A stretch of DNA of 58,022 nt, from positions 1-58,022 of the IMG/VR virus record IMGVR_UViG_3300031994_000017. One strand, written 5' to 3'. Numbering within the stretch: the first letter of the stretch is position 1; each line of letters opens with the position of its first letter. The position numbers were made by a program, and so were the translations under genes. The notes beneath the pieces were generated by a model, which saw only the letters and a list, made by a program, of their open reading frames with translations, was not told where the DNA came from and ran no database searches. Below, piece after piece: positions 12,394-54,643 of this stretch. This DNA is from a virus. Taxonomy: Duplodnaviria; Heunggongvirae; Uroviricota; Caudoviricetes.

Positions 12394-12422
12394 TTGACAA
12401 TTACAAAATTTTTTGTTATAAT
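12394..12422 (+). promoter_or_regulatory. Consensus sigmaA promoter with extended -10
   Basis: TTGACA-17 nt-TATAAT, with TG immediately upstream (TGTTATAAT). Confidence 0.85.
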
Positions 12423-12457: not shown

Positions 12458-12994
12458 ATGGCAAAAGTTCCATTTACAAAATTAAATACAATTAAATCAA
12501 TTCCCGCGCAGGAAATTAGTTTTAATAATTAGAAAATTATAGTTGAACAATATCTTCCACTTTCTCAAAAGCTTGAATTAATTCAAACAGTAATTGAGCT
12601 TTCTGGTAATGGAGAAGAGGGATTTTATAATATTGTAAAACTAAAAACTTATTATACAATTGAAATGCTAAAAGCATATACTAATATTTCATTTACTGAT
12701 AAGTAGCAAGAAGATGTAACTAAATTGTATGATGCTATTGTAATGAATGGTATTTGGGATGCGGTCGCAGAAGCAATTCCGCAATTAGAAAAAGGGTATA
12801 TTTGGGATAATCTTTTAACTATGGCAAGAGAAGTTACTGATTATAATCATTCCGCTTTAGGTATTTTAAAAACTTTAAAAATGGAATATGGAGAAGAAAA
12901 TTTTTCTTTAGAAAAAATTAATGAAATGTTAAATAAATTAAATGATCCAAACGAATTATAGATTATTAAAGCTGCAGTAACTAATTTGGGCTAA
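12458..12994 (+). CDS. Hypothetical protein before tape measure (~178 aa, 3 TAG), possible chaperone
   Basis: ATG after AGGAGG, in frame with the 12725 piece; ends TAA. Confidence 0.65.
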
Positions 12995-13031
12995 TTTTAT
13001 TATTCTTATTTAAATATTTTTTATATTTTAA
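12986..13031 (+). promoter_or_regulatory. Candidate late-promoter motif, copy A
   Basis: TTGGGCTAA...TTTTTTATATTT; ATA starts 37 nt after TTGG. Upstream of the tape measure gene. Confidence 0.5.
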
Positions 13032-13040
13032 TAGGAGTAA

Positions 13041-13080
13041 AATAATGGCAAGAGTATTTTACTCTTGTCATTATTTTTTT
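13041..13080 (+). terminator. Hairpin plus T-run before tape measure (terminator or attenuator)
   Basis: AATAATGGCAAGAGTA-TTT-TACTCTTGTCATTATT stem with one G-U pair, then TTTTT. Confidence 0.6.
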
Positions 13081-13110
13081 AGTTAAAAAGAGAGAAAGGA
13101 GAGTATAGAG

Positions 13111-16100
13111 ATGGCACGACAAATATCTGTTGGTATTAATTTTAATGCTAATATAAATCAAGCTAAAGCTTAGATTGATAAATTAAATCAAAGTTTAGAA
13201 AAAATTAAATCTACTGAAATTATTGTTCAAGGTGGAAGTATTTAGTAGGCAGTATAGTCTGCTAATTAGTTATAGTTAGCTTTATCTAAGGCTGTTAATA
13301 CTTCTACTGGTCGTTTGGATTTTAGTGCTTTATAGTCTAATTTAAAAATGATGAACACAGATGTTTTATCTGTAAGTCAGAATTTATTAAGAATGGGGCC
13401 TGATGGTCAAAAAGCTTTTTCGCAGTTAGGTACCGCAATAGCAACAGCAGAATTGCCTGCGAAGCGTTTGAATTCTACTTTAGTTAATTTTGGAGATACT
13501 TTAATAAGAACTATTCGATGGTAGATAGCTTCTTCTATGATTCATGGTTTTATGAGTTCTGTTAAAAATGCAGTTTCTTATATTGAAGATTTAGATAAAT
13601 CTTTAAATGCAATTTAGCGAGTAACTCAAAAAAGTTCTTTTGAAATGGCAGGTTTTGCGAATTAGGCAAGTGAATTAGCGGCTAATTTAAAAGTAGTTAC
13701 TAAAGAATATACCGATGCTTCTTTAATTTTCTTCCAGCAAGGTTTAGATACTAATGAGGTAATTGAAAGAACTGACGCAACTATTAAATTAGCTAAAGTT
13801 ACAGGGTAGAGTGTATCTGATATTGCAAGTAGATTAACGGCAATTTGGAATAATTTTGATGATGGAACCAAGAGTTTGGAATATTATGCTGATGTTATTA
13901 CTGCGCTTGGTGCTGCTACGGCTTCTAGTTCGGATGAAATTTCTTAGGGCTTAGGTAAATTCGCGGCAATAGCAGATACAGTTGGTTTAAGCTATGAAAA
14001 AGCTACTGCGGCTTTAGCAACTGTAGTAGCAGAAACTCGTTAGAGTGCTGATACAGTAGGTACTGCCTTTAGAACCATTTTTGCTCGTTTAGATAGTTTA
14101 AGCTTAGGTGAAACTCTAGAAGATGGCGTAGGACTTACAAAATATACTGAAGCTTTAGCTAAGGTTGGAGTAAGTGTTTTAAACTAGAAAAATGAATTAC
14201 GGGCTATGGATGATATTCTTGATGACTTAGGAGTTCGTTGGCAAACTTTAGGAGATGCTTAGAAAAGTGCTGTAGCATAGACAGTAGCAGGTATAAGGTA
14301 GTATGCTTAGTTTATTGCTTTAATGGATAATTATCAAGATGTTTTAAAAAATCAAGATATCGCTGAGAATGCCGAAGGGACAATTTAGAAATAGTTTGAT
14401 ATTTATGCTGATAGTATTGAAGCATTAAATAATGAAATAAAAAAAGCTAAATAGGATCTTTATGGGGCAATTTTTAATGGTGATGCAGTAAAAGGTTTTA
14501 AATCTGCTATTTTAGATATTTTAAAAGTTGTTAGAGATATTATTGATGGTTTTGGCGGAGTAAAAGGATTAATAGTAACATTAGGAGCTTTATTATTAAC
14601 TAATTATATGCCTAAAATAGAAGCTGGAATAATTCGTATAGGAACAAATTTGAAAGATTCTTTAAATATTACTAATTTTTAGAGACAAAATACAATTCAA
14701 GAATTAATTAATCAAAATTCGAATAATGTAAATTCTGAAGTAGTTAAAGGAATTTCAGAAGAAAAAAGTGGAGCTTCTTTAGAATAGCAATAGGCTTATT
14801 ACACGGATTTAATGCTTAAAAAAAGAGTTGAATTGGAAGCTATTAGTAGTAATTTAACAGATAAATAGCGAGAATCTTTAAATTTATAGATTCAAGAGTT
14901 AGAAGTATTAAAAGAATAGGCTATTGCGGCTAGAGAAAAGTACGAAAGTGAAAAAAAAGAGGCTGAAGACTATGCTCGAAATTACAGAGCTAAAGAAAAA
15001 ATTGTAGATTTTAGAAAAAATAAAGAAAAAAATTAGTTAATTGAAGAACAGTCTAAACTTAATAGTAGTAGAGGTGGTTTAACTACTGCTAATAATAAAG
15101 TTGAACATGAATGGTAGGTAGCCAAAGGGGAAAAAGGTGCTGCTCAAAGAGCTGTTAATTTAGCCCAAAATGAGGCAAACAGAATTAAACAAGAAGTAGG
15201 CAATTAGAACACACCTGAATTAGAAAAAGCAAGAGAAAATTTGACAGAAAAACTAAAAGTTTTAGCAGAAGCTACAGATAGAGAGTTAGAAGCATCTAAA
15301 AAAGTTTTAATAGCTAAACAAAAATTAGAGAATAATGAAAATGAGCGTTAGAAAATAGAAGAAAAAATGAATGAATTAAATGGCACTAATGGCTCAAAGC
15401 GAATAGAAGAAATGGCGAGTGATATTAGTGCTACTGGTATTAAAGATAATAAATTATGGGATAATACTTAGAAATAGCTAAAAGATAAAGAGACAGAAGC
15501 TTTTAAAGTAGATACTACAACTTTAGCAAAAGCTGGAAAATTAACAGGAGAATTACTTAGTAAACAAAAAATATATAATGGTTTAAGTGAAGATTTAAAT
15601 AAAACTTTAAATTTAAGAAATAAATTAGATACAGATAATATTAAAAATACAAAAGAGCAAGAAAATATACAAAAATAGGTAGGAAAAGAGCTGTAGGCAT
15701 AGTCTGAACGTTTAAAATAGATAAGTAAAGAAGAATAGGGAAGATTAAAAGACAAATTAAGTTAGAGTGAGAACGGCAAAAAAGCTTTAAAAACTTTAGA
15801 AGTATAGTCTACAGGTGAACTAGACTTTTCTAAATTAAAAGATTTAGATGAATCATAGCTTAAGGCTGTTTCAGACGCTTTACATCAAATAAGTGATGAT
15901 GCAGGAGATGCGGCAGAAAAAACTAAAGTCTTATCTCAAGCTATAATTGAAGAATTGGCATAGAAATTAGGAATACCTGAAGCAGAATTATAGGCTTTAG
16001 TAGACAAATACCGAGAAGTCGGAGAAGCAGAAGAAGAAGCAAAAAATAAAGCAATAACTTTTGCTGACGGTTTTGCCGGAGGATTAAATATAGTTTCTGA

Positions 16101-19100
16101 TAGTTTTGGAACTTTTATGTCTGGAGCTTAGAGTGCTATAGGAACTTTTACTAGTTTTTCTATGGGGGCAAAAATGCTTTCCACGGGAGTTAGTTAGTTA
16201 ACTGAGGCTTTTGGAGAAAATGGAACAGCTATACAACGAGTTACATCTATTATGATGATTGCTCGTGGAGCTATGTCTACTTTAAACACAGTTTAGTAGG
16301 CAACTGCTTTTATTTCTAAAATTGTGGCTGCGGCTCGGAAAAAAGAAACCGTAGAAGAAGAAATAAATACTGCAGCTACCACTGTCAACTCAGTTGCTAA
16401 AGTGTTTAATGCCGAGGCTGGAAAAGGACTGGCAGGAGTTATTCTAGCAGTTGTTGCTGCGGCAATTATTGTTTCTACAATAGCAATTGTGGCAAATACT
16501 GTAGCAACTAATAAAAATACCAAAGCTAAGCAGGCCAAGGCAGCTCAAGATGAAAAAAATGCTTAGAGCGCAAAAGAAGCAGCTGAAGCAGATAAATAGG
16601 AATTAGAAGAATTAACACAGCTTAATAATGAATATGAAAGAACCTATGCGATTTATAAAAAAAATAAAGAAAATAAAGAGGATTTAATTGATACAATACC
16701 AGATTTAATTGATAAATTAGAGATAGAAAATGGTTATTTATTATTATAGCAAGAAAGATATGAAGAATTAAATGCGGAAATTGAACATTATTTAGCTCTT
16801 AAGGGAGAGCAAGCTAAAACCTCTGCGGAAAAAAATGTTACTAATGCGACTCTTGATTTGGCTTCTACGGCTGCGGCCAAAGAGGGTGGAGCTCAAAAAG
16901 TTGATGTTGTTAATGATGAAGGCAAAGTTGTAGGATCAGCTATAAGGTTCCCAATTGATGATGCTGAAGAATTAGGATATTTATCTCAATATTTAGAAGA
17001 AAATCCTGTTTAGGGTTGGACTGTTGATAGCGCTGGTTTAGTATTCTATAATAAAGAAAAAAATGCTAAAACCGCAGAAAAAATAAGAGAAATTTATGAT
17101 GGATTTTTTAATTGGATAAAAGATGTAGATAGTGAATTTGTTGCTGCTAATAGTGAATTTGCCAATGTGTTTCATGAAGCAGAAGAAAATGGGGAAATAG
17201 AAAAATTAGAAAGTTTAACTGCGGCAGAAGAGTTAGAATAGGATACTGTTTTAATTAATAGTATAAATAAAAGTAATATAGCACAAAGTGATAATTTTAT
17301 TGATTATACAAAAAAAAGAGCTGAATTATTAAAATAGTATATAATTGAATCGGGAAAAACAGAAGAAGAGGCAGAAAGAGCATTAAATCAATATTTAAAA
17401 GAGCAAGATGCCACTAGAGAATTTGAATAGAATTTTGAAATTTCTCGAGCAAAATCAAAAGAAAGTTCAAAATTGGATTTTTCTTCAGGGCAAATTGAAT
17501 ATGAGTCAGGAAAGTTTCAAGATCTTAATACTTTTTTATCAAATAATAACATGGATGAAGATGAATTTTTTACTCTTTATAGTAAAATACGCTTTGTTCC
17601 AGATGAGGGTTCTTTGGGAGAAAGTATTTTAGAAGCTCGTGAAATGGTAGAAAAAGAAGATATATTGGTAAAGATTGTTCCTAGTGCTGAAGGGGCTTAG
17701 AAGGATTTAAAAGAAGATATGTCTTCTGATGAAAGGACTGCCTATACAGAAAAATATAAAGACACTCTTTTTGATGAAAAATATGGATTAAAAGATGCTG
17801 AGGGTAAAGCTTTAACCGCCTCAGATTTTTGGCAAAAAACATATGGAGAACGAATAAAATTAGTTAATTAGTGGGCAGATAGTTTAGATAAAGTTGCTTT
17901 AAACACAAAGCATATTAATGATTTAGAAAACTAGCAAGCAAGTTTAGAAAAAAATAGAGAAAAAATAATTGAAAAACGTGTAAAAGCAAGAAAAAATGAA
18001 GAATAGGAATATTAGGATAATTTAAAATTAATTAGCGAATTAGAAAATAAAAAAAGTGAATAGAGTAAATAGGGTTATTTTTCGTCTTTGGGCGCCTTTG
18101 AAGGAGAAAATTTAAGAAATAGTTTTTCAGAGGTAATAGCTAATGATATGGATGAAACTAAACTTGCTAAAAAATTATCTAATAGAGCTTTAGGGTATCA
18201 AGTAAATATTTCTGATTTTTAGAATAATAAATTTGTATAGAAATTATTAGCTTCGCCAGTTTTTAGTTAGGAATTTTCTGACGAAAATGGAGAAATTAAT
18301 TGGGATTATTTATTAGATTGGTTAACTGATTATCTAGGAACAAATGAGGAAAATAGAGCAAAAAAACTTGGAGATATCAATACCAGATATTATAATGAAT
18401 TATAGGAAAAATTAGAGAAAGCTTAGTTGAGAAAAGACGAATTAGAAGCTGAGTATCGGCAAGAGGCAGAGAGTGATATTCAAAGAGATATTGATAATAT
18501 TTAGACGGAAATTAATTCTTATGAAGATCAATTAGCAGCTTTAGAAACTGAAAAAAGAGATAAATAGATTGCTGATTTAGATTTAGAAGATGGTGAATTT
18601 GATGTTTATTTAGAAGGTTTAAAATCAATTATACCTTATTAGGAAGATGTTTATAAAAATATTGAAGATTATAATAATGCTATTATAGACACAGCGATAG
18701 CAAATAAACGCATGGAAAAAGGCATTAAAGCTCTTGCTTCTAAATGGGATGATTATGATAAAATTATGTCAGATTCTAATGCCTCTTTAGAAGACTTATC
18801 TACAGTGTTGCCCGGAATAAATGATGGACTTTAGGATATATTAAATTTAGATGATATTGATTTTGAATTATTACCTAAAGATTTTGTTTAGAAGAATTGG
18901 AAATTAATTACTGATGCGGTTAATGGTGTAGAAGGCGCTATTGATGAGTTAAGAGATAAAGCCGGCGAAGAAATTTTATTAAATATTGGAGCAAAAGCAA
19001 ATTGGGATGAAGATATTACCAATACTGTTATGGATTTACATAATACCATTGCCCAATATGATGATATGAATTTTGAAGTTGGAGTAAAAGTAGATCCTTA

Positions 19101-22100
19101 GGATCAAGCAGATTTTTATTAGGCTTGTACGGATTTAGTTAATGCTGCTGGTATGGCCAAAGAACAAGCATAGGCATATTTTGCTTCTATGGGCTATGAT
19201 GTTGAATTGGCAGAAGTTGATACAACTAAACAAACTAATTGGAATGTAAATTGGCCAGAATTAGATGAACAAGCAAGTAAAGATGCGGGTGTGCCAATTT
19301 TTAAGGATAGTACAAAGCATTTAGAAGGTACAAACACAACTGGAGGAAAAGTATTAGCAGTTAAATCAATTACTCCAAATGGTTCTTACGGCGGCGGCAT
19401 AGGCGTAAATACAACCGCTCCTAAAACCGCGGCTCGTTCTGGCAGTGGCGGCGGAGGAGGAGGAGGCGGTTCTCGCTCTAAAAAAGAGCCTAAAAAAGCC
19501 TCTGATGAAATTGAACGCTATCATAAAGTAGATAAAACAATTGATTCACTTTCTAAACAATATGATCATTTAAAGAATGCTCGTGATGCGGCTTATGGAG
19601 CGGATAAATTAGCAGTTATTGATGAAGAAACTAAACTTCTAAAAGAATAGACTGCGGCCGTGCGTGAGCGCGCAAAAGAGGCTGAAAAGTATCTCGCAGA
19701 AGATAGAGCTAATATTGAGGCATTCGGCGCGGTAATTGATGCGAATGGTGTAATCAGTAATTATGATGAAATCATGTAGCGTGAGTTAGATAAACTTAAT
19801 GCCGTTTATGCTAGCTATAACGCAGGTGGCTCTAGTGATGAATTGGTTGAAAAAGCTGAAAAAGATTATGAAGATTTTAAAAAATTAATATCTAAATATG
19901 AAGGTACTTTAGAAACCTATTAGGATGCTGTAGAAGAAATTGCCGCGAAGGTTCGTGAATAGCTTGAACTTGAACTTGAAAAGATTGATGTAACTCTTCA
20001 AATCAAATTAGATATATCGGAAGAAGAAATCAAAAAACTTGATTTTAGACTTTAGCGTTTAGAAGGATTGAATTTCCGCGCGGCTGAGCGCATAGCCGCC
20101 CAGTTTGATAAGCTTGGTGCTTCCTGGGAGCAATTTGGAGAAATATACGAGAGCGCAAAATAGGTATTAACTGCTGGTATTTATGATGATGCTGGTAATT
20201 TAGTTGCTGGTTTGGGGCTAACAAATGATGTAGCTTCTCAGTTACTAAATGGTAATACTGATATTATTGATTCTCTTGGTCTGACAGGTGAAAATAAACA
20301 AGCAGTTCTTGATGCTTTAGACTAGTATCGTGATGATTTAATTAGTCGGTATAGTGATATTGAAAGCGGGCTTGAAGCAATATAGGATGAATATGTCTAG
20401 CAAACTGAAGATTTTATTTCTTAGATTGAAGAATAGACTTCTCGCATTGATAGACTAGGCCAAATGGCGGAAAATATTAAAGATTTATATGGCACTTTTG
20501 GTAAAGAGCTTACTGGTATAAATGCGGATATAATGCGTTCTATAAATCGCACTATTAATAATAATAATATGGCGATGTTGTAGTCTATGCGGTCTGAGCA
20601 AGCGGCTGCGGAAGAAAGATTAAGGGCGGCCCAAGAGCAATTAGCAGAAGCAGAAAGAAATGCTATTTTATTAGGTAATACTCCTGAAAGTGATAGAATG
20701 GTTTAGTTCTGGCGTGAATAGACTACTGAAGCTCAAAGCGCTTTAGAAGATTTAAATAACGAAGTTATAGAATAGGTTAAAACCATTGCTGAAGCTGCTA
20801 AAAATATTTTAATAGATACTATAAAGGATGAATTTAATAGTTTAGGTGAATTAATGTTTGGTATGGTTGGAGAAGATGCTTAGGCTAGTTATGATAGATA
20901 TAAGACTTTAAGTGACGCGACTTTGTAGGATTATTAGAAAATTTATGAATTAAGTAAATTAAGCCGGGCTATTAATAATTCAATTAATGATACAGATAAT
21001 ATAAGAGCTAAAGAAATATTAAGAGACTTAGAACGTGAAATTGTAGATTATCAAGCTGAAGGAGTTGAAATGACTCAATATCAAGTAGATAATTTAAATA
21101 AACGATATGAATTACGATTGGCGGAAATTGCTTTGGAAGAAGCTCAGAACGCAAAAGACCAAGTGCGGTTAGCTCGTAATGCTGATGGTGGTTGGGGATA
21201 TATTTATACTGCCAATAGTGAGAATATAGATAAGGCTCGTCAAGATTATGAAGACAAATTATATGCTTTATAGGAATTAAATAGACAAGCAATTGAAGAT
21301 AGTCAATCTACTTTATTGACGTTGGAAAGTGAATTTAATCAAGCATTACAAGATTTAGCTAATTCAGCTACCTTAACGAAAAAACAAAAAGACCAACAAG
21401 CAGAAGAATTAAGAAAACATTATATGCGTTTAGGTTCTATTAGTGCTTCTACTTTATAGGAAGCTCTAAATTTTAATAATAAGTTATTTGATAGCGATTG
21501 GAAAGATTATAGTGACCGATATGGTTATATACGTTCCGCAGATTAGGATTATGTAGATAAATTTAGTGAAACTTGGTTAGGATAGCACGGAATTGGTGCC
21601 ACTTTAGACTCAGCTACTGAATGGTGGGAACGCTATTAGGATAAAGTAGGAGATTTAAATACTCCGGGTAGCGTTCTTTATAACTTAGGAACTGGATATA
21701 AAGAGTATTTAGATTTCTTGTAGACCGGATTGGAAGCTGCGGGATTAGATAAAAATGGTGATTTTGGCTAGGGCATTTTAGATTAGATGTAGTTGATTCA
21801 GAAGGGCACTGATGAATCGGCGGAAAGCGCTTAGAATTTTGCGAAAGCATGGAAAGATAGTGCGGCTGAGGCTGCTAATGCGGTCGGAAAAATGTAGGAA
21901 AACTTAACCAAAAAGTTATCTAATATGGCTACTTCTATTGAAAATTTAAATGCGGCTATTAAAAAATTAAGGGAAACCTTGGCCGCAGCTAGTTCTACTC
22001 TTTCTAATACTACATTAACTTTACCTACTGCTAGTAATACAACTTATGTCCCCAATTAGGTTAATCCTAGTGGAGATAATGGCGATTAGGGTAGTTCTTC

Positions 22101-22734
22101 CGGAGGCACTTCGGGCGGTCCTCGTGGGTATAGTACTCTTTAGACTGTTAAGTTTGATAGTCCTTGGAATAAAGAAAAGAAAAAAGATACTCTTTCATGG
22201 TATCCAGGTAGTGGTGAAAAGATATTAGAGAAATATTATAACGATAATGAAGAAGCTATGAAAAATTATTTAAATGATAATAAAGTAGGATATACAGTGC
22301 GAGAATGGTGGGAGCAATGGTTAGCCAATAAAGATGTTTTTAAGAAATATATTCAAAAACTTAATCCTGGGGTTTCTTTAGATAGTGGCGGATATACCGG
22401 TAATTTTGGCCCAGAAGGTCGTTGGGCAATACTTCACTAGAAAGAATTAGTGCTTAATGAACAAGATACTAAGAATATGTTAACTGCTGTAAAGCTAGTT
22501 AGAGACTCTTTAAACGCAGTATCCCTTGGTCGCCATTTAGGTGGTATAAAGGCTTATGGTAATTATAATTCTAATCAAAATAATGGTATAGCTTAGCAGA
22601 CTATAAGTATTGAAGCTCATTTCCCCAATGTTGTAGATAGATATGAGATTGAACAAGCCTTTAATAATTTGGCTAATTATGCGGCTCAAAATGCTTATAA
22701 TTTAGATTTTTCTGAAAAAGTAAATATCTTTTAA
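13111..22734 (+). CDS. Tape measure protein (~3,207 aa, TAG-dense)
   Basis: Pieces 16324, 17473, 19189, 21070 and 22258 share the frame from ATG 13111. TP901-like N-terminal region, hydrophobic 16.2-16.55 kb segment, C-terminal DSGGYTG...LH[Q]KELVLN; ends TAA. Spot-checked, not read codon by codon. Confidence 0.85.
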
Positions 22735-22736
22735 TT

Positions 22737-22777
22737 AAAAAGGCCCCTTTGACTTTTATATCAAAGGGGCCTTTTTT
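22737..22777 (+). terminator. Intrinsic terminator after tape measure
   Basis: AAAAAGGCCCCTTTGA / TCAAAGGGGCCTTTTT 16-bp stem. Confidence 0.85.
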
Positions 22778-22824
22778 GGCCCAAATTAACCAATATTCTT
22801 TTTTTATTTTTTATAAATATTAGA
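22776..22824 (+). promoter_or_regulatory. Candidate late-promoter motif, copy B
   Basis: TTGGCCCAA...TTTTTTATAAAT; spacing 37. Directly after the terminator, before baseplate genes. Confidence 0.5.
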
Positions 22825-22850
22825 TAAAGAGAAAAAGGAGGAAAACATCT

Positions 22851-23954
22851 GTGGCTACACAAGAAACTTATTTGGCCTCTTTTGTTGAAGGGATGCGGGT
22901 AACCGCAGAGCGTTTTATTCAAATTGCGCAATTTGATAAAACAATAAATGCCTAGATTATTGAAATTGATAATAATGATGATACTTTATTTTATGTTTCT
23001 ACTACTGGCTGCTCTCGCCTTCCCGTACATAAAGTCATAAATGATAATACTATTTATGTTCCTGGAGATAATGTTTATGTTAATATCCCTGGTGGTGATT
23101 TTAGTAGTCCTGATAAAATAATTATAGGAAAAATTAGTTCTTATAATTATAAAGCTAGTATAAAAACTCCATCAGATTATTTAGTTGATGCCTCAAAAAC
23201 GCTTCAAACTATTGAGAATTTCCCTAACACAGAATGTTATTCAACAATGATAGTTGAATTTGCCCCGATTATCTAGTCTACTGAAGGCGCGATTGGAGTA
23301 AAAGAAGTAATTTTTCCTTACACCCTTACATTTACTGATTAGGAAGGAATTGAAAAATAGATTAAAGGATTATGGTCAACTAGGAATTTATATGGCAATA
23401 TTTTTAATTCTTTTATACCGAATAAGCAGTATATAATTATAAAAGGTTTATCAAATTATCGTAATATAACTTTTAAATGGGAATTAGAGGATATGGACTA
23501 TTATTCCATGACACCTTTAACTTTTGGCGGAAAAGAAATTCCTCAAAAATGTATAGCAAATATTATAAATAATTAGAAGTTTTATTTTAATTATGATATT
23601 GAGGACTTTGATAAACAAGGTTTATTTAATACTTATATTATATTAACTGAAGCTGGTTGTAAATTTTTCCGTTTTATTGATGGTGCTTGGGTAGAGCAGT
23701 CTTCAGATTACTCAGTTGAATAGATGAATAAAGAGGATGCGGAAAAGGGATATACTTGGCGTCTAGAATGGTATTAGCGCAATTTGGGTCTTTTAGAAAA
23801 TGAAATGATTAATTATTTACCATCCTATTGGGAACCTTTAAAAGAAGAGCCAAAAGATTATCATAAAAAATTAGTTTGTTTGGTTGCGGTAAAAGCAAAT
23901 ATTGAAAAAGAAGATAACACAAACCGCAAAGTTTTATATAGTATTTTAGAGTAA
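22851..23954 (+). CDS. Tail/baseplate protein (~367 aa)
   Basis: Not in the ORF track. GTG after AGGAGG, open to TAA if TAG=Gln (VYVNIPGGDFSSPDKIIIGK). Confidence 0.6.
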
Positions 23955-23968
23955 AAGGAGGAAAGAGA

Positions 23969-26926: not shown

Positions 26927-26940
26927 GGAGGAAATGTTGT

Positions 26941-28554
26941 ATGTAGTATCCAGATACTTTTTTACAAGAATTATAGTCTCAACATATTCAAACTAAATGG
27001 GCTAGAATAACTTTATTAAATTGGGATGAAGAACCTGTTCAAGAAATTTAGGGTATGGTGACTGGCGGCAATGCGAATGTAGACGGCAATTCCGCCATTA
27101 GAACCACTTGTTCTCTTTCTATAGTTTCTAAGACAGATGATTTAACTAAATATTCAATCGCTTTACGTTCAAAAATAAAAGTAGAGATTGGGCTTGAAAA
27201 TAAAATTAATAAAAAATACCCAGATATTATTTGGTTTAAGCAAGGTATTTTTATTGTAACAGGTTTTAATACTTCTAAAAATACTACATAGTCTAATTTA
27301 AGTGTATCAGGTAAAGATAAAGGATGTTTATTAAATGGCGAAATTAGTGGTTCTTTGCCTGCTTCTACTGATTTTGGCAAAGTAGATGAATATTCTAATA
27401 CTTATGAACCCATAGTTAATTTTGATTATACTCCTGGTAAATATTATTATAAATTTAATAATCTTTATTTAATAGATTACTCATTATATAGAAGAAATGT
27501 AGAATATTATGAAAAAATTTCTTCTGTAACTACTACTCAGTTGCCAATAAAAGATATAATAAAAAATATAGTTCATGTCTATGGCCATGAACCTTGGCAT
27601 AAAATTATTGTTAATGATTTAGATTTAGTTGGTAGTGAATTACTTGAATATAGGGGAGATAAACCTTTATATTTGATTAAAAAAGGTGATGTTAATAATA
27701 ATGTTTTTATAGGTATTACTTTTGATGGAGAATATGAAATAGGCGGATAGAAGATAGGATATTTAGCAGAAGATTAGTATTTAAGTTTATCGGCTATAGA
27801 TGATGAAGTTAATTCAAAAATATAGCCTTTGGATGAATAGTATTATATTGTTAAATTAGTTTATGGAGATACAATGGGATATAAAGGTGTTGAACTTACT
27901 TTCCCTGGAGATTTAATTGCGAACGTAGGAGAAACTGTAGTTAGTGTTTTAGATAAAATTAAAAATATTCTTGGAAATTTTGAATATTTTTATGATTTAG
28001 ATGGTAATTTTGTATTTTAGGCAAAACATTCTTATGAAAATGTTAATTTTTCTAAGATACGATACGATGGTGATAATGAAGTCTATATAGATGGTTCATA
28101 TTATAATAATGGAATTATTTATTCTTTTACAGATGAAGAAACTAATACACAATTTTCTCATACTCCTAATATCACAAATTTAAAAAATGATTATTCTATC
28201 TGGGGAGAAAAAACAACCGCAACTGGAGGAAAATTACCCATTCATTTACGTTATGCGATTGAAGCAAAACCATATTAGTATACTACTATTGGAGATGGAG
28301 AGCGAGCAGGTTTTACCTATATAACTGGTAATGATGGGTCTACAGAAGAATTAAATAGTGCTTTTAAATTATTATAGGACATGGAAGAAGAATATAATAC
28401 CTAGTTAAAAAATATAGAGGAAAAAACTCAAGAGTACGAGGATTTTATTGAAAGTTCAAAATTATCTTTACAATAGTTAACAACATCTTTAGTTACGAGT
28501 GATTTCAAAATAGAAATTCCCGATGATTTTAAGCAATATATTATTAAGAGATAA
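26941..28554 (+). CDS. Baseplate hub/Tal-like protein, N-terminal part (~537 aa); codon 2 is TAG
   Basis: SD AAGGAGGA 8 nt before ATG. In frame with pieces 27055 and 27355; FPGDLIANVGETVVSVLDKIKNILGNFEYFYDLDGNF; TAA at 28552-28554. Confidence 0.7.
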
Positions 28555-28571
28555 AGGGGTGACTAAGAGTT

Positions 28572-30950
28572 ATGACTGCGCTAGAAAAAGCCGCGAGAGA
28601 GCCTATAAAAAAATTAATACCATATTTAGGATATGGTGAAAAAAATAATAAATCTGATTTATATAATATGAATACTTATGGCACCGGTAAGTATACTTTA
28701 TTCGCGGAATATTTTGATAATTTGCGCCGATAGGGATATAATTTTTATAACGGTTATAAAAATGGTTATGACTGGTGCGATATGACTGTTGACTGGGCTA
28801 TATGTCAAGCTTTTGGTCATGATGTAGGAAGAAGAGTATTATATTAGCCTATGAATAGCGCTGGAGCAGGGTGTTCTTGTTCCGCAAGTTACTATCGCAA
28901 TAATAAAGCTTGGATTTCAAGAAGCGGACGACCTCTTCCTGGTGATTAGATATTTTTTGGTAGTTATGGTAATGAGTCACACACCGGTATTGTTGAAAGT
29001 GTTACTGCCACCGAAGTACATACAATAGAAGGTAATACTAGCAAGAAAGTATTACGTAGAAGCTATTCTAGAAATAATTCTAGAATTTCTGGTTATGGCC
29101 GTCCTAATTACTCTTTAGTAGCCGGTAATTATAGTAATGGCCCAGAAGAAGAACAATAGTCTAAGGAAGATACTCAGGCGGTTCAAGAAGAAAATCAAAA
29201 AACCTAGGAAGCGATGGAAAATCTTCAAAAAGCATTAACAGATTTATCAAATTCATTGGCTGAATTTAATTCTACCAATAAAAATGAAGATTCTTTTATA
29301 GAAGGTTCTCTTATAGAAGATTTAAATTATGGCACAACAAATTGGTTTGAGGATTTTTTATAGAATTATAATAATTTATTAGAAGAATATAATCTTTGTT
29401 TAAATAAAATTAATTCTTTGAGTTTCTTTTATCTAAGAGATAATCCTTATCAAATTTTGACTAATCTTCCTAAAGATTATGTTATAGAAAATTTAGTAAC
29501 AAAACCTTCCTAGTCTAAAGATAGTATTTCTTATCTTTGGTAGAAAATGTTTTATGGGACATATACTCCAGCGCAATTGACTTATTTAAATTCATATCCT
29601 ACAGATTTAAAGTATGAAATAGCTTGCTATTATGGTTACAAAGACGCCATTGATTTTTATACTGTGGAAATTAAAAAATGGTTAAATGATTTTAACACAG
29701 CCTTAATTAAAGAAGATATTTTTTCCGCTTGGTTAAGTTGCTTTAATATATTGTAGGCTAATATTTATTTATTATATATTCATACTTTCGGAGAAATAAC
29801 TAGAGAATTGAAATCAGGCCTTTCAGAGGATGAAGTTAATCATTCAGATACTGATTATACTTATATTAGAAAAGGTGTTTCATACAATTTTGGAAAAAAT
29901 AATGAAGATTATTGGATTTTTATTAATAAAGCCAAAGAAATGACTTAGCTTTTTAAAGATAATTTATATTTGCCCGCAGAAAAAGTATAGACAAAACTTA
30001 ATTATTGGATATTAAATATAAATGGGCCGCAAAGAGTAACTGACCAACATTCTATTTTTGAAGAAGCTATAAATAGTTATTCTGAAAAAATATTAGAAAT
30101 TTAGAATAATTATATGAATGATTTAACATCATTAAAAGAGAAAAGCCGCGAACATCCTATTTTAGTAGATTGGAGAGAGTTAATCTACTAGATGGCCAGA
30201 GATTATTTTGACTATTACCAAAATCCAAATTATGATTATTAGAGTATGTTATTGGCCGCCAATAAGGATATATTAAAGAAAAATGGAACCACTGGCTATG
30301 AAGTTTTTTATACGGATCTTTTGGGCTTTTGGAGAGAGTTATATTATAATCCCTTATTGGAAAAAAATGATTATGATATTAAAAATATATTCTTAGAGTC
30401 TTCAGATTTTAATCCTGAAACTAATTGGCGCAAAATAGTTTCAGAAAGGCCATCTTAGTTAAACTATTGGTTTGATTTAACTGAAGGTTATGGCGAATTA
30501 GCTAAATATACTATTTCCGCCATTGGAGATAGATTGAAAGCAACTAAGGATTCTGCTGTTGAAGCTTTATATTATAAAGATACTCCTAATATAATTTATT
30601 ATGAATAGAATGATATTCCAAAAGTTGAAAATGATGGTTATAATAGTTATACCTATTTTTAGCTTGGAGGGCCTATGTTAGATGTTTACACTATGAGCTC
30701 TCAAGGAAAAACAGCTATTGATCTTTTACAAGATTAGTTATATAAATTTGCTTTTTGTGTAGAGAATATTTCTATTACAACCCTACCTATTTATACTTTA
30801 AAGCCTAATTATCGGATTTTAATAAAGAGTGAAATATAGGGTTTGAGTGGAGAATATATTATAGATAAATTTTCAATACCCTTTGTTTATAATGGAACAA
30901 TGACAATTAATGCTATTAAAGCTGTTCCTTATATAGGTATTAATGGATAA
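28572..30950 (+). CDS. CHAP peptidoglycan hydrolase domain fused to tail/hub C-terminal region (~792 aa)
   Basis: ATG after AGGGGTGA. WCDMTVDW (Cys), PGD[Q]IFF, SHTGIV (His), TIEGNT; then coiled coil and VDWRELIY[Q]MA; ends TAA. Confidence 0.8.
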
Positions 30951-30966
30951 AAAGGAGGATTAAAAG

Positions 30967-31350
30967 ATGGAAATAAAGCAATGGGTAAATGATATTCATT
31001 CCGGGCTTTTTGAAGGTCATAAAGCATATAGAATAGGATTTTAGGCACTTCCTGGCACCAAGTTTACAATTACTGGGACAAATAGTGATACTCCTAGTGA
31101 AATTATTATGGGGCCAACTGGAATTTATGAAATTGGTTTTGCGACTCCTCTAATTGAAGATTTTAATGTTACTGAATCAATAGATAGCCCACATAGTATT
31201 ATGATTTTAGATGCTATTTTAGCTAGTGACACTGATGAAAATTTAAATGAATATGATGCCGCTTTTATCGCATATAATTACGATACACAGGAAAATGTTT
31301 AGACTAAAATTTCTAACTCAACTGAAGAAGTAGGAGGTGCTGAAGTATAA
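30967..31350 (+). CDS. Small tail-module protein (~127 aa)
   Basis: ATG after AGGAGG; F[Q]ALPGTKF...GPTGIYEI; ends TAA. Confidence 0.6.
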
Positions 31351-31814
31351 TGGCTATTACAGATTTTGTAGATACCGGTAATTATGCCAATAGTTTTTAC
31401 GGAACCTATGATCATTACTAGCGAATTGGTTGGTATTTTGATAAGATAGTAGATACCTTATAGGATTTGGAAAATTGTAAAGACATTATGACTGGGCGTT
31501 TTGTATTGGTAAAATCTGAAGACGCAATTTTTATGCGGACTTCAGATAATTATACAGAAAATTATCCTTATTAGCGTTATGAAATTTAGGATAATACATT
31601 AATACCAGTAGAAAGCAGCGTTTATGAGGCAGAAGGCTTTAGATTTATTGGTTATGCAACCAGAAAAGCTATGCTATTATTGGATGATGCTTATATTGAC
31701 GTAGATAATATTGCGGCCTATAAAATTGCAAAGACAGATAATGTTAGAAGTTTAAGTGCTTATTATTTCCCGACGGAATATAATAAACAATATTGGAAAG
31801 ACGTGGAGGAATAA
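31350..31814 (+). CDS. Hypothetical protein (~154 aa)
   Basis: Not in the ORF track; TAATG-coupled start; open to TAA if TAG=Gln. Confidence 0.6.
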
Positions 31815-31817
31815 AAA

Positions 31818-32207
31818 ATGACACCAACTTTAGCTCTTATTTTTGAGATATGTATAATTCCTTTATTAGGAGTTTTAACTACTTTTTTAGTTGCTTTAAT
31901 TAGAAATAAAATTGCGGAAATAAATAATAAAACCAATAATGAAACTGCGGAAAAGTATTTAACTATGTTAAGTGAAACAGTTATTTCTTGTGTTATTGCG
32001 ACTAATTAGACTTATGTAGAAAGTTTGAAAAAATAGAATAAATTTGACTTAGAAGCATAGAAAAAAGCTTTTGAATTAACTAAAAACGCGGTTTTAGAAA
32101 TTTTAAGCCATGAAGCAGTAGATTATTTGAACGCAATTATTGGTGATTTAAATACCTATATTGATAAATTGATTGAAGCTACGGTTAATTATAAGAAAAG
32201 CAATTAA
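31818..32207 (+). CDS. Holin, LL-H-like (~129 aa, 3 TAG)
   Basis: N-terminal transmembrane segment then amphipathic helices (ATN[Q]TYVESLKK[Q]NKFDLEA[Q]KKAF); at the end of the tail module. Confidence 0.7.
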
Positions 32208-32254
32208 AATAAGAGGATACTCATTTTTATTAATGAGTATCCTCTTATTTTTTT
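32207..32254 (+). terminator. Intrinsic terminator after holin
   Basis: AAAATAAGAGGATACTCATT / AATGAGTATCCTCTTATTTT 20-bp stem plus T-run. Confidence 0.85.
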
Positions 32255-32286
32255 TACCATTTTTTACATACGCAAATTGTGATTGG

Positions 32287-32336
32287 TTGGACAAATGTGG
32301 TAAAAAATTGGTAAAGTTTTTTCATATATCAATGAG
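32287..32336 (+). promoter_or_regulatory. Candidate late-promoter motif, copy C
   Basis: TTGGACAAA...TTTTTTCATATAT; spacing 37. After the holin terminator, before the accessory cassette. Confidence 0.5.
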
Positions 32337-32373
32337 AAAAATTGGTAAAAAATTACCAGAAAGGATGAATATT

Positions 32374-32775
32374 ATGTATCAATCAAATTATGGCTACTAT
32401 AATCCTCAGTCGTAGATACGCCAAACAGTAGTACCACAATTGACGCAACCTATTATGCAATAGTAGCCCATTCTAAAAGGACACCCTGTTGCATCATTAG
32501 AAGAAGCCCGCGCCACATCTATTGATTTTGATGGTTCTGTATTCTTTTTCCCAGACTTAGCAAATAAGAAAATTTATACGAAACAAATCAATGCGGATGG
32601 TACAGCTTCTTTAAATATGTATAGCAAACAGGATCTCCCTCCAGAAACTCCGGCAGGAGGAAATTTTGTTACGCATGAAGAATTAGAGGCGGTTATTGGA
32701 CAATTGCGGCAGAGTCTTATTCCGCCCGCAAAAGACCCTGTGCCGCCAATAGACAAGACTTCTATCAAATTTTAA
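32374..32775 (+). CDS. Cassette gene 1, Q/P-rich hypothetical (~133 aa)
   Basis: ATG after GAAAGGA; 3 TAG; LKGHPVASLEEARATSIDFDGSVFFFPD; ends TAA. Confidence 0.7.
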
Positions 32776-32787
32776 GGAGGAATAAAA

Positions 32788-33033
32788 ATGGCAGAAGATT
32801 ATAAAAATTATATTTTACAAATGATTAGAAGTGGTAAAAATCCGCAGGAAGTAGTCTTAAACGTGATAGGCGGCCCTATGTCATAGACTCCTATTGGAGC
32901 AAATTTAATTGAATTAGCAAAATAGGGCAAAGGAGCTGAAATAGAACAAATAGCTCGTAATATGGTAGCTTCTCGCGGGAAAGACTTTGATACAGAATTC
33001 AATGCCTTCAAAAAACAATGGGGGTTTGAATAA
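32788..33033 (+). CDS. Cassette gene 2, helical hypothetical (81 aa)
   Basis: ATG after AAGGAGG; 2 TAG; ends TAA. Confidence 0.7.
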
Positions 33034-33058
33034 TATATATATCAAAGGAGGAACTTAT

Positions 33059-33952
33059 ATGTTCAATCAAGGTAATGGCTATTCTTTAGCCGACATTGCT
33101 GCTGCTGTTGGTGGCAGTAATGGAATGTTCGGTGATGGCTCTAATGGAGCCTGGTGGATTTTGCTTCTGTTCTTATTCGGCTTAGGCGGATTTGGATGGG
33201 GCGACGGAGGCTTTGGTGGATTTGGCCGTCCTGGTGGAGCAAGTGCTTAGGGAGCAACCACTCGTGCTGAAATTACTTATGGTCTAGATATGAGTGATTT
33301 ACAGCATGGTATTACTGACTTAGGCAGCTCTATGAAAGATGGTTTCTATGCTATCAACACAGGCCTATTAAATGGTTTTGCTGGTTCAACAGCCGCAGTT
33401 ACTAATGGTATCCAAGCTATTCAAACTGATATTTGTAATTTAGGTTTAACTAATTTACAAAATACTAATAGTGTTATTTCTGCTATCAATGCTGACACCA
33501 TTGCTAATATGCAGAATACTTTTGGTATAACTACTCAACTGAATGCTATGGCTAACCAGCAATAGAACTGCTGCTGCGAAACTCAGCGTCAATTAGAACG
33601 CGATTTTGCTGACTTAAATTATAATTTAGCAACACAAGAATGCGATACTCGTCGTTCTATCACTGATGGAGTTAGAGATATTATTGATACTAATAATGCT
33701 AATACTCGTTCTATTCTTGACTTCTTAGTACAAGATCGTATTACTGCTCTTACCAACGAGAACAGCGCTCTTCGCACTTAGATTTCTTAGAGTGAGCAGA
33801 ATGCTTATTTAGTATCTCAATTGGCTCCTAAAGCTGCTCCTGCTTATGTAGTTGCTAATCCTTATACTGGGACTATTTATCCAATGACTACTTATGGTAG
33901 TGGATATGGTTGCGGATGCGGATGTGGCTGCGGTTGCGGTGGTTTAGCTTAA
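33059..33952 (+). CDS. Cassette gene 3, Gly-rich membrane protein with CCC and (GC)5 tail (~297 aa)
   Basis: Pieces 32987 and 33290 share the frame. WWILLLFLFGLGG segment, NCCCET, PAYVVANPY, C-terminal GYGCGCGCGCGCGGLA. Confidence 0.75.
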
Positions 33953-33985
33953 TTTTTTACAATTAGATTGGAGGTTTTTTAAACT

Positions 33986-34405
33986 ATGGAACTAACAGCT
34001 AATGCTTTACAAACAGTAGGAACTTTTAGAGATATATTGTTTACTGAAACTGCTGTTGCGGGAAATTGCTCCATGATTCATCGGGAAGGTAGTGGATTAG
34101 TTACTTTAAGAGGATTAACTAATCAATGTCGAGCTAGATTTAAAATTCATTTTGGAGCAAATGTAGCTATTCCAACAGGAGGAACTGTAGGCCCAATTAC
34201 AGTAGAATTTTCTATTAATGGTGAGCCGGTTGAACCTTCTACTATGATTTCTACACCTGCTGCCGTAGAAGAATTTAATAATATTAGTCGGACTATTTTC
34301 TTAAACGTACCTTCTGGATGTTGCACTCAAATTAGTGTAAAAAATACTACAGCAGATGATATTGAAGTACAAAATGCAAATTTAATTGTAGAAAGGGTGG
34401 CGTAA
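33986..34405 (+). CDS. Cassette gene 4, beta-rich BclA C-terminal-like protein (139 aa)
   Basis: Intact ORF; alternating hydrophobic beta pattern, VPSGCC. BclA-C resemblance is from recall, not a search. Confidence 0.5.
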   Translation: MELTANALQTVGTFRDILFTETAVAGNCSMIHREGSGLVTLRGLTNQCRARFKIHFGANVAIPTGGTVGPITVEFSINGEPVEPSTMISTPAAVEEFNNISRTIFLNVPSGCCTQISVKNTTADDIEVQNANLIVERVA

Positions 34406-34406
34406 A

Positions 34407-35009
34407 ATGGAACAGCTAAAACAGATGAAAGAAACTTTAGTTAATCAAGTGCAAGGCCAAATGGCGGATTTACGTTATGTAAATACCCATGAATTGGGCG
34501 AAGTTATTGACATGATTAAGGACATTGAAGAAACTATATATTATTGTACCATAGTAAAAGCAATGGAAGATAAAGATGAAAAAGAACCATTAATGTATTA
34601 TGGAACTAGATATTTGCCACCTTACGATCCACAAGAAGAGTATTATAGGGATTTAGATAAGCCATATGGACGGATGTATTACAGTGATGGTCAAAGAACT
34701 AGCTCTTCTTCTTCATCTAGCGGCCAGGAATCTGGTAGAAATTATGGCGGAAGAGATATGAGAGGATATACAGAATATGTTTATCCAATTGATATGCGCG
34801 ATCGCAGAGAAGGCCGCAGCCCCATTAGCAGAAAGACCTATATTGAAAGTAAAGAAATGCATCAAGATAAAACGATACAAATGAAAGAATTAGAAAATTA
34901 TATGGCGGAGTTATCTTAGGACATTTCTGAAATGATTCAAATGGCGTCTCCAGAAGAAAAGGCTGTATTATAGAAAAAATTAGCGGCTCTTTCTTCAAAA
35001 ATTAACTAA
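34407..35009 (+). CDS. Cassette gene 5, Y/R/G/S-rich hypothetical (~200 aa, 2 TAG)
   Basis: Extends past TAG 34917 to TAA 35007-35009. Confidence 0.7.
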
Positions 35010-35320
35010 TGTTTGAAATAAATGGTGAATATTGGGGGATATTTATAGTATCCCCCAATCACCATAGCTTAATGCGTTCAGACGGTTCTTTTACTATTGG
35101 AGTATGTGATAATAATGAAAAAAGAATTTATATTAGCGATGGATTAGAACCTTTATTAATGAAAAAGGTTTTAGCCCACGAAATAACTCATGCAGCTATG
35201 TTTAGTTATGGTGTAAATTTATCCTTGTCTCAAGAAGAATTATTAGCAGATTTAATTGCAACTTATGGTCAAGAAATAATTTGTATTGCTAATAAAATTT
35301 TTCATCGTATCACCGAATAA
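35009..35320 (+). CDS. Cassette gene 6, HExxH zinc metallopeptidase-like (103 aa)
   Basis: VLAHEITHA motif with a downstream EE; TAATG-coupled to the previous gene. Confidence 0.65.
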   Translation: MFEINGEYWGIFIVSPNHHSLMRSDGSFTIGVCDNNEKRIYISDGLEPLLMKKVLAHEITHAAMFSYGVNLSLSQEELLADLIATYGQEIICIANKIFHRITE

Positions 35321-35324
35321 AATA

Positions 35325-35365
35325 AAAAAGGAGTTAGTATCTTTAAAATACTAACTCCTTTTTTT
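35325..35365. terminator. Bidirectional terminator at the strand switch
   Basis: AAAAAGGAGTTAGTA / TACTAACTCCTTTTT, with an A-run on the left and a T-run on the right, between convergent genes. Confidence 0.85.
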
Positions 35366-35870
35366 ATTCGGCGACAGAAAGAGCAAATTTTTTTTCTACT
35401 AAAGAAAAATATTTATCCCCTATATTGTTTCCTCCTAAAGCATTGTAAACATCATGATCCTAAACTAAACGCTCATATTCATCTGAAGTAATTTTATGTT
35501 CTGGAGTTAGCAATTCTTTGCAGGTTGAAATAAAAGTAGTTCTTTGAATAGATAATAACCCTCCAGTTAATTTTCCAATATTACCATCTAGAGTATGTAT
35601 AGTTTCATCTATATGATTAATTTCATCAGTAATTCTAACATCTGCGTCAACCATTTCTTGGTGCTATTGGTCAATAACTTCCATTACATGTTTTTCTTGA
35701 TTGTTTATACGCTGTTGTACTTCATCCAATAACTCTTCTTTTTCTTCATCATGCTGCCGCGCCTATTCTTTCTTATATAGGCCCCAAACTTTTTTTAAAG
35801 CAATACTTAGTCCAGTAATAATTAAACCAAATACAAATTGTAGCCAATACTATGCAATAAATTGCAGCAT
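35364..35870 (-). CDS. Single-TM coiled-coil protein, possible lysis accessory (~168 aa, 4 TAG)
   Basis: ATG 35870 with SD GGAAGGGAG; MLQFIA[Q]YWLQFVFGLIITGL...YNALGGNNIG; ends TAA. Confidence 0.6.
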
Positions 35871-35911
35871 TTGTTCATTGCTCCCTTCCATAGAATAAAA
35901 ACTTTACAGTT

Positions 35912-35960
35912 CTCATATTTATTAAAAAAGTGGAGTAATAAATTAAAGCTTTAGGACCAA
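35912..35960 (-). promoter_or_regulatory. Candidate late-promoter motif, copy D
   Basis: Minus strand TTGGTCCTAA...TTTTTTAATAAAT; spacing 38. Upstream of 35364..35870. Confidence 0.45.
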
Positions 35961-36442
35961 TCAAAACCAATATTTTTAACTTCTATATTTAATCCAGCTT
36001 CTCCAATACAAATAGCATCACAAACATCTTCAGAAACATTTAATTTATATTTGCTCTTAACATATTGTTTAGCTCGTTGTTTGCAGGTTGCTCTATCAGC
36101 ACCCCAAAGAGAAAGTCTTTTTCGCCATACACTTGGAGCCAATATTTCATAATCTATTTTTAATTCTACTAATAATTCAGTTATAACTCCAATTACTTCA
36201 GCTAAGGTTTTATAAGTGGATACATTATTACCAATATTACTTTCTAATTGAATATCTTCTAGAAATACTTTTTCAATATTTTCAGAAAGCAATATATTAT
36301 TTAACCACTATCGTATTTTTTCTAATCTATGATCTAATTTTGTTCCTGTGGCTGTATAAATTCCAGATTTTATTAATTCATTTCCTTCAAAAATAGCATA
36401 ACCGGTAATTTTGCTGCTCTAATCTAAAGCTAAAATTTTCAT
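35951..36442 (-). CDS. ruvC: RuvC-like Holliday junction resolvase (~163 aa, 2 TAG)
   Basis: MKILALD[Q]SSKITGYA, VFLEDIQ, DVCDAICIG motifs. Confidence 0.8.
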
Positions 36443-37208: not shown

Positions 37209-37211
37209 ATT

Positions 37212-38022: not shown

Positions 38023-38048
38023 TTAAAAACTCCTTTTTTATTTTCTTT

Positions 38049-38077
38049 ATTTTATCATAATTTTTCTACAAAGTCAA
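38049..38077 (-). promoter_or_regulatory. sigmaA-type promoter
   Basis: TTGACT-17-TAAAAT with TG extension. Confidence 0.6.
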
Positions 38078-40844: not shown

Positions 40845-40892
40845 CTACTATATTTTGTGTTTGCGCTTTATAATATATACAAAATGCAGTAG
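40845..40892. promoter_or_regulatory. Tandem NrdR-box-like operators upstream of nrdD
   Basis: CTACTATATTTTGTGT (40845-40860) and ATACAAAATGCAGTAG (40877-40892), starting 32 bp apart. Confidence 0.55.
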
Positions 40893-54298: not shown

Positions 54299-54643
54299 TT
54301 AATTTTCAATAATAATATTTCTTCCCTTATCGCTTAAACCATAAATAACAGGGTCTGTGCTTACCTTAACAACATAACCGTCATTGACTAATTTGCGGAT
54401 TGCTCCAGAAACTGTTCTAGAAGCTACTCCCAATCCTTCAGCAATATCTTTTGCCTTCCAAGTTAATGTTTCTGAATTATTTTGCAGATAAGTCAAAACC
54501 AACTTTCCATTATCCGTAAACAAGGGCTTTTCCTTTTTACTTTCAGTTCTAAAAGCTTGCCAAAATTCTTGAGCGCCTTCGCTCAAAGAAGAAATATCAA
54601 TCTTTTCTTCAACTTCATTAATAAAATCAATTTTACTAATCAT
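54299..54643 (-). CDS. Winged-HTH protein (114 aa)
   Basis: KAKDIAEGLGVASRTVSGAIRKLVNDGYV...YGLSDKG. Confidence 0.8.
   Translation of the reverse strand: MISKIDFINEVEEKIDISSLSEGAQEFWQAFRTESKKEKPLFTDNGKLVLTYLQNNSETLTWKAKDIAEGLGVASRTVSGAIRKLVNDGYVVKVSTDPVIYGLSDKGRNIIIEN

Follow-up and report, generated by a model that had tools for sequence, protein, structure and literature searches.

A candidate promoter class with a fixed-phase upstream box at TAG-containing genes of a recoded phage

An earlier note on the stretch of DNA analyzed here, which comprises the 58,022 nucleotides (nt) at the start of IMG/VR virus record IMGVR_UViG_3300031994_000017 and is called the window below, drew attention to a four-copy bipartite motif and proposed it as a late promoter, the target of a phage sigma factor or activator. 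The window makes up the first 58 kb of a virus contig (G000 in what follows, other G and L numbers denoting relatives, the closer of them from ENA and Logan) that is circular, 150.3 kb long, and ~33% GC, with strong Shine-Dalgarno sites and ends overlapping by 127 bp. The question raised by this locus is whether the motif is real, which genes it heads, and what kind of protein might read it.

Sequence, geometry, and conservation of the motif

The four sites were found at 12986(+), 22776(+), 32287(+), and 35960(-) exactly as had been described, with ATA at +37, +37, +37, and +38, respectively (Table 1), and the pattern TTGG-N27/28-TTTTT-N-ATA-W-W-T gave 4 matches compared with 0.06 expected from 100 dinucleotide shuffles, in which the largest value was 1. 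Written for the whole genome (150 kb), the motif consists of TTGG-N-C(C/A)AA, 27-28 variable bases, a T-tract, and ATA(A/T)AT, the ATA being at +37 (+38 at one site). The offset histogram provides a control that is independent of the choice of pattern: when TTGG-N-C was scored against TTT-N-ATA-W-W in G000, 7 pairs fell at +37 and 1 at +38, compared with a mean of 0.25 at the other offsets between 12 and 120 (P ~9e-9). The refuting condition set in the earlier note, a motif as common in coding DNA as elsewhere, does not hold, seven of the eight composite hits being located outside gene bodies (binomial, 1.2e-5). Moreover, the genome has 28 TTTT-N-ATA-W-AT boxes, of which only 5 have a ribosome site and a start codon 26-50 nt downstream, and exactly those 5 have TTGG at -37/-38 (Fisher, 1e-5). 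The geometry of the four sites is, therefore, beyond chance.

A strict fifth copy was found at G000:84082(-), preceding a 1244-aa gene with 18 TAG codons, and a relaxed pattern added the copies at 40915(-), upstream of nrdD, 60258(+), and 71207(-), as well as two with poorer boxes at 102889(-) and 124766(+). This makes ~10 copies genome-wide, each oriented toward a gene start located 22-50 nt downstream and several of them directly after terminators. A composite copy also lies inside a 426-aa gene of the window, with no gene start downstream, and is kept in the distant relative G008 (G008:16068); this conservation is probably due to coding constraint, an internal promoter of the downstream head genes being the alternative. 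When 30 copies from the phage and its relatives were aligned, the upstream box read (T)TGG-N-C-N-A(A) and was followed by a weak AA(t) ~21 nt before ATA, by the T-tract and ATA(A/T)AT, and, 8-11 nt beyond the first A of ATA, by TAGA. With the first A of ATA numbered -11, the box would extend from ~-48 to -40, and +1 would fall on the conserved A of TAGA.

No relatives were obtained by blastn against GenBank phages or by a related-locus search with two tail proteins, and those recovered from IMG/VR on the basis of TerL are distant (50-58% identity). In five of these distant relatives, which include G001, G003, G008, G010, and G013, pooled and read whole, TTGG-N-C occurs 11 times at +37 and 5 times at +38, versus 0.95 at other offsets, so that the spacing first described in the window recurs outside it. 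The strict composite motif gave one chance hit in 13 distant relatives and, across IMG/VR outside this lineage, four chance hits in coding DNA; TTGG alone combined with a loose box gave no outstanding offset spike in the relatives. Loose candidate sets defined by the -10 box only were discarded as too noisy, since they yielded no information peak, and the GG enrichment was clear only in this genome.

The footprints of the motif are kept at four orthologous junctions (tape measure/tail, nrdD, cassette, and RuvC-end) while the spacers diverge. At the tape measure/tail junction the box reads TTGG/CTGG-CC(C)AAA at +37 in five lineages, and in L115 and L116 the terminator has been relocated between the box and the core, with the box inside its stem and the +37 spacing unchanged. 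At the nrdD, cassette, and RuvC-end junctions, +37 or +38 is kept with the boxes GTGGAC, GCGGAC, and TTGGTC. At site 4, the +38 spacing is found again in the orthologous junction of G002/G013, G003, and G001, the box in G001 being AAGGAC.

Table 1. Coordinates of the motif copies, terminators, contrasting promoters, and candidate reader gene in the window
Feature	Position	Strand	Remarks
Composite copy inside a 426-aa gene (2555..3835)	3034..3079	+
Canonical TTGACA-17-TATAAT promoter (contrast)	12394..12422	+	Sequence scan
Site 1, upstream box TTGGGCTAA	12986..12994	+	Ends in the TAA stop of the 178-aa gene 12458..12994 (last 3 bases)
Site 1, T-tract and ATA box	13017..13030	+	ATA at 13023; followed by a 13-codon mini-ORF (open reading frame) and a terminator hairpin
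Intrinsic terminator downstream of site 1, before the start of the tape measure gene (13111)	13040..13082	+	-19.1 kcal/mol, z -10.4
Terminator closing the tape measure gene, just upstream of site 2	22737..22776	+	-25.3 kcal/mol, z -5.8
Site 2, upstream box TTGGCCCAA	22776..22784	+	+37 kept in L113, L115, L116, and L117
Site 2, core (T-tract, TATAAATA-like box, predicted start region with conserved TAGA)	22807..22826	+	ATA at 22813
Bidirectional terminator between the holin gene and site 3	32206..32251	.	-27 kcal/mol
Site 3, upstream box TTGGACAAA	32287..32295	+	Orthologue in L108: GCGGACAAA at +37
Site 3, core (T-tract, CATATAT box)	32318..32337	+	ATA at 32324; 133-aa gene starts at 32374
Site 4, upstream box TTGGTCCTAA	35951..35960	-	Overlaps the 3' end of the RuvC-like gene 35951..36442 (last codons and TAA stop)
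Site 4, core	35910..35928	-	ATA at 35922..35920, spacing +38; the downstream 168-aa membrane-protein gene begins at 35870
Canonical SigA-type promoter of the TAG-free operon P0001-P0003 (contrast)	38049..38077	-	Sequence scan
nrdD site, core	40865..40884	-	ATA at 40878..40876; +37 kept in L108 and L110
nrdD site, upstream box TTGGGCCAA	40907..40915	-	Upstream of nrdD; additional to the original four
Further canonical promoters	45050, 57586	-	Sequence scan
Candidate reader, 114-aa winged-helix protein, MarR/HTH_24-like	54299..54643	-	TAG-free; own extended -10, SigA-type promoter

Genes headed by the motif and their TAG codons

Genes were called by a simple script. Under the standard code, the plus strand of positions 1-35.3 kb is almost without long ORFs, and reading TAG as sense turns it into a normal structural module, including a tape measure gene of 3207 aa with 108 in-frame TAG codons. 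G000 carries 32 tRNAs, among them a suppressor tRNA with a CUA anticodon at 104164-104240(-), inside the 32-tRNA cluster beyond the window. Because the structural module opens only with TAG as sense and a CUA suppressor tRNA is present, the phage is TAG-recoded, of the kind described by Borges et al. TAG codons are also present in the NrdD, RecJ, dUTPase, and RuvC genes, and none were found in those of the polymerase, DnaB, and primase. The ORF totals of the clade suggest three codes, i.e. the standard one (G008 and G010, with little change on recoding), TGA as sense (G003), and TAG as sense (G000, G001, and G002/G013).

The units headed by the TTGG-class sites are all TAG-bearing. In ten out of ten, the first gene of at least 100 aa contains at least 2 internal TAG codons, versus 3 of 37 for the units with canonical promoters (Fisher, 5.5e-8), the first genes after canonical promoters being TAG-free in the other 34 cases. 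Canonical promoters (TTGAC-17-TATAAT) number 42 in the genome, mostly at 128-146 kb, with four of them in the window. As had been claimed, the TTGG class is distinct from these SigA-type promoters, since it has its own fixed geometry and lacks a -35 box, unlike the 42 canonical ones. A consensus scan for a -35 hexamer 16-18 bp from the -10 box found none at site 2, and at site 3 only a 9/12 match, TGGACA-18-TAAAGT.

The TAG-bearing units include the tape measure gene, a tail/lysin/holin operon, an accessory cassette, a membrane gene, NrdD, and a fibre-like gene. The gene contexts given in the earlier note held as well: the tape measure gene does follow site 1, with the correction that a strong terminator stands between them, and a tail operon follows site 2, where a 367-aa gene has its GTG start at 22851 and the unit extends through the tail genes, a CHAP-domain lysin, and the holin to the next terminator. 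Site 3, downstream of the holin terminator, heads the accessory cassette. Sites 2 and 3 are indeed the two that follow strong terminators; the boxes of sites 1 and 4, for which the earlier description has to be corrected, overlap the TAA stop of the upstream gene. The term "late promoter" suits the tail and lysis operons, but non-structural TAG genes are among those headed by the class as well, nrdD and a phosphatase-domain gene included. Because all ten units are TAG-bearing, the non-structural ones included, a better name than "late structural promoter" is "middle/late, TAG-gene class." NrdD (763 aa, start at 40833(-)) has 5 in-frame TAG codons, and its full-length Pfam match needs those 5 to be read through.

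Some of the sites have further features of their own. The stem words AGAGTA/TACTCT of the terminator downstream of site 1 are kept at this junction in 5 of 6 diverged genomes (the junction is also present in G001, G002, G003, G008, and G010), an unusual conservation for a terminator-stem sequence, and the terminator is overlapped by the mini-ORF, which has its own ribosome site. Near site 3, an inverted repeat TTGGTAA-N4-6-TTACCA occurs at 32342-32358, just before the ribosome site, with a degenerate copy in the spacer at 32296-32316; it is conserved at the orthologous promoter in L108 and L110 and could be a repressor operator or a hairpin of the 5'-untranslated region. In relatives (L108:6275-6325 and L110:7085-7140), the nrdD/nrdH promoter has two ACTATATATAGT-type palindromes across its -10 region and leader; in the present phage (~40845-40880(-)) they are degenerate. 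They resemble NrdR boxes, and host NrdR may repress the phage reductase genes.

Proposed mechanism and alternative explanations

We give an even chance to the reading that the TTGG-class sites constitute a second phage-specific promoter class for TAG-containing middle and late genes, which would work through a phage activator and the host polymerase. The core would comprise the T-tract (~-17 to -12), the tATA(A/T)AT box (~-12 to -6), and the conserved TAGA start region, and, without a -35 hexamer, host RNA polymerase with SigA alone should read it poorly. A DNA-binding protein encoded by the phage and made early would bind TTGG-N-C(C/A)AA, whose centre is ~33 bp upstream of ATA (~-44), a distance of three helical turns that would place the box and the core on the same face of the DNA. 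The bound protein would then recruit or remodel the host polymerase, like Mor/C of Mu or other class-II-like phage activators. The TAG genes would thus be gated twice, at transcription by this promoter class and at translation by the suppressor tRNA.

As to the protein that might read the box, Sigma70_r2 and TIGR02937 gave no match in six-frame profile searches, and no sigma factor was present among the ~55 proteins scanned with Pfam or PHROGs, some small ORFs being outside that scan. Hence, of the two kinds of reader proposed in the earlier note, one of the activator type is more likely. ArpU (TIGR01637) and Mor (PF08765) were likewise without a match in profile searches, as was the Q antiterminator family Phage_antitermQ (PF06530), other Q families not having been searched. 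The phage RNA polymerase profiles PF00940 and PF00562 were absent from the six frames, the former negative being weak because the PF00940 control rang nowhere. Because no phage RNA polymerase or sigma factor was found, the host polymerase must be used. Two proteins were considered and rejected. A 211-aa protein with an r4_2-like helix-turn-helix (HTH) (G000:129321-129956), the only region-4-like HTH found, is absent from the relatives, and P0001 (180 aa), considered as a gp55 analogue, has an alpha/beta PAS/Cache-like predicted fold (predicted local distance difference test score, pLDDT, of 80) with no match in the PDB. P0001 has many metagenomic homologues and a confident model and belongs to no known family; it is encoded in a TAG-free operon, P0001-P0003 (180, 110, and 80 aa), at 36966-38077(-), which has its own canonical promoter amid TAG-containing genes.

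The candidate that we put forward for the upstream box is the TAG-free 114-aa winged-helix protein of Table 1. It is conserved in all five relatives at ~50% identity, and it is the only conserved TAG-free DNA-binding candidate without an assigned role among the ~55 proteins scanned. The nearest solved chains are weak matches of the AspA-type winged HTH, and tblastn against GenBank phages returned no match.

Several points weigh against the activator-dependent class. A strong terminator is located within 20 nt after site 1, before the tape measure gene, and this arrangement is kept in six genomes; by its sequence context, site 1 may give rise to a short RNA, may need read-through, or may be no tape measure promoter at all. 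The leading TT of the box is variable among close relatives (CTGG, GTGG, and GCGG), so that the real contact core would be only ~GG-N-C-N-A, with the outer TT not essential. The box, which in this phage is mostly GG-N-CCAA, is palindromic in this genome only, a lineage-specific feature that weakens a simple dimer model, and the head-gene block has a canonical promoter at its start (G000:146763), so that not every late gene depends on the class. Finally, the patterns were tuned after the data had been seen, for which the offset and relatives tests provide the control.

The dyad was also considered as a general feature of the motif and rejected: TTGG-N-CCAA has 10 copies versus ~3 expected (p ~0.003), a rank of 10 among 256 palindromes, and the boxes of the relatives are not palindromic. 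Another palindrome, TTGC-N-GCAA, is more over-represented, with 18 copies versus 3.1 expected in the whole genome. Two exact TTGG-N-CCAA boxes lie between divergent promoters outside the window, one (G000:146747-146755) between two canonical promoters, of which one heads the head-gene block, and the other (G000:60258-60266) between a canonical and a TTGG-class promoter. This placement suggests a possible switch in which one and the same protein acts on both classes.

A bolder form of the activator reading, which we hold only tentatively, is that of a transcription system dedicated to the genes in the alternative code. A new small activator, or a factor that appropriates the polymerase, would act at the G/C-containing box at ~-45 to turn on the -35-less core and may make the polymerase ignore terminators, in which case the code switch would be a coupled transcription-plus-translation programme. 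If this were true, the presence of the class in standard-code and TGA-recoded relatives would mean that it predates recoding, and recoding may have evolved with it as a scaffold.

It is rather unlikely, in our judgment, that a highly diverged sigma-like factor of the phage, akin to T4 gp55 or to that of Kayvirus, went undetected and reads the core, with the TTGG box as the site of an auxiliary co-factor. The sequence TATAAATA is exact at site 2 and in the copy at 84082 and is matched at 5-7 of 8 positions in the others, standard sigma profiles miss gp55-like proteins, and large lytic Firmicutes phages of the Kayvirus type have -35-less late promoters with a long -10 box that are attributed to a phage sigma factor (PMC7698491). 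However, besides the negative sigma searches, the unconserved 211-aa protein, and the predicted fold of P0001, which is not that of a sigma factor, neither T4 nor Kayvirus late promoters need the fixed upstream box that is seen here.

We see little probability in a box that loads a Q-like antiterminator or processivity factor onto the polymerase for read-through of terminators internal to the late operons. Such a function would account for the hairpin between site 1 and the tape measure gene and for further hairpin terminators within the late blocks, and transcripts from Kayvirus late promoters do ignore a terminator (PMC7698491). Nevertheless, the Phage_antitermQ search was negative and most sites are located after terminators rather than before them; moreover, antitermination is compatible with the activator model and not exclusive of it.

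An equally improbable reader would be a host protein, either a global regulator or an alternative sigma factor, that ties these genes to the physiology of the host. The absence of an assignable phage regulator speaks for it, as do the NrdR-box-like palindromes that overlap the nrdD copies in relatives; on the other side, to our knowledge the box fits no known regulator consensus, a full-text literature search for the box words found nothing, and outside the lineage the strict composite motif is absent from IMG/VR save for the four chance hits. The explanation with the least to commend it is that the sites are weak constitutive SigA promoters, with a distal UP-like or structural element upstream and TAG recoding alone setting the timing: the TATAAA-type -10 boxes do match the SigA consensus at 5 of 6 positions, site 3 has its 9/12 match, and one exact box lies 16 bp upstream of a canonical -35 (G000:146747), but the box contains G/C and keeps a strict single-base spacing, in contrast to A/T-rich UP elements, the T at -7 is missing in most copies, and the orthologous boxes are conserved while the spacers diverge.

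Significance and comparison with known promoter systems

The main paper on stop-codon-recoded gut phages does not mention promoters, and in the published model recoding in these phages is a purely post-transcriptional timer (bioRxiv 10.1101/2021.08.26.457843). In one clade of recoded Firmicutes-type phages, the TAG genes would have a conserved predicted promoter class of their own, unlike the host-type promoters of the TAG-free early genes. Such a class would offer a testable handle on the timing of the switch, consisting of a 50-bp element, a short list of candidate readers, and clear mutations, and it would supply an annotation rule for transcription units in such uncultivated phages. If the reader is a new type of activator, it could provide a useful orthogonal promoter/regulator pair for Gram-positive hosts.

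The late promoters of Kayvirus (Staphylococcus phage K-like) consist of a long -10 box, TGTTATATTA, without a -35 box, and are served by a phage sigma factor (PMC7698491). The present phage resembles Kayvirus in being a large lytic phage of the Firmicutes type with many strong SigA-type early promoters and about a dozen -35-less late ones, some units having both. It differs in that Kayvirus has no upstream element and a recognisable sigma factor, whereas here there is an upstream box and no sigma factor was found; in addition, the -10 sequence of every copy differs from TGTTATATTA.

The T4 late promoters (TATAAATA; gp55, gp33, and the gp45 clamp) likewise have an AT-rich box of the extended -10 type and no -35 box and precede virion and lysis genes. 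The T4 sequence is exact at 22812 and G000:84046 and is matched at 7 of 8 positions in three copies and at 5-6 of 8 in the others, and the second, upstream element is conserved as well. Unlike in T4, a T-tract and a conserved box at a fixed distance upstream belong to the signal analyzed here, the core is degenerate (CATATAT in several copies), and no protein similar to the gp55 used by T4 was detected.

The closest likeness is to the activator-dependent phage promoters, i.e. Pm/Mor and Plys/Pmom/C of Mu (PMC4461284), those of P2 Ogr, phi29 p4, and TP901-1 Alt, and those of staphylococcal RinA (PMC3152322). These promoters have a poor or absent -35 box, a recognisable -10 box, and an upstream protein site at a fixed position on the same face of the DNA. 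The corresponding features were found here, namely a weak or absent -35 box and an upstream box in fixed phase, at +37/+38 in ~10 copies and in the relatives (box-to-ATA spacer, 27-28 bp). Use of the host polymerase and a regulator made early would be shared under the proposed model. The differences are that no Mor, ArpU/RinA-type, or Q homologue was found, that none of these promoters shares the box sequence or its placement at ~-48 to -40, and that those systems have 1-4 copies, compared with ~10 that are spread over the genome and head TAG-recoded genes. The sequence, the box at ~-45, and the link to recoded genes match no system that we compared, and the full-text search for the box gave nothing. 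Overall, the TTGG-class sites are real and, as predicted from their sequence, promoter-like, a variant of the activator-type late promoters.

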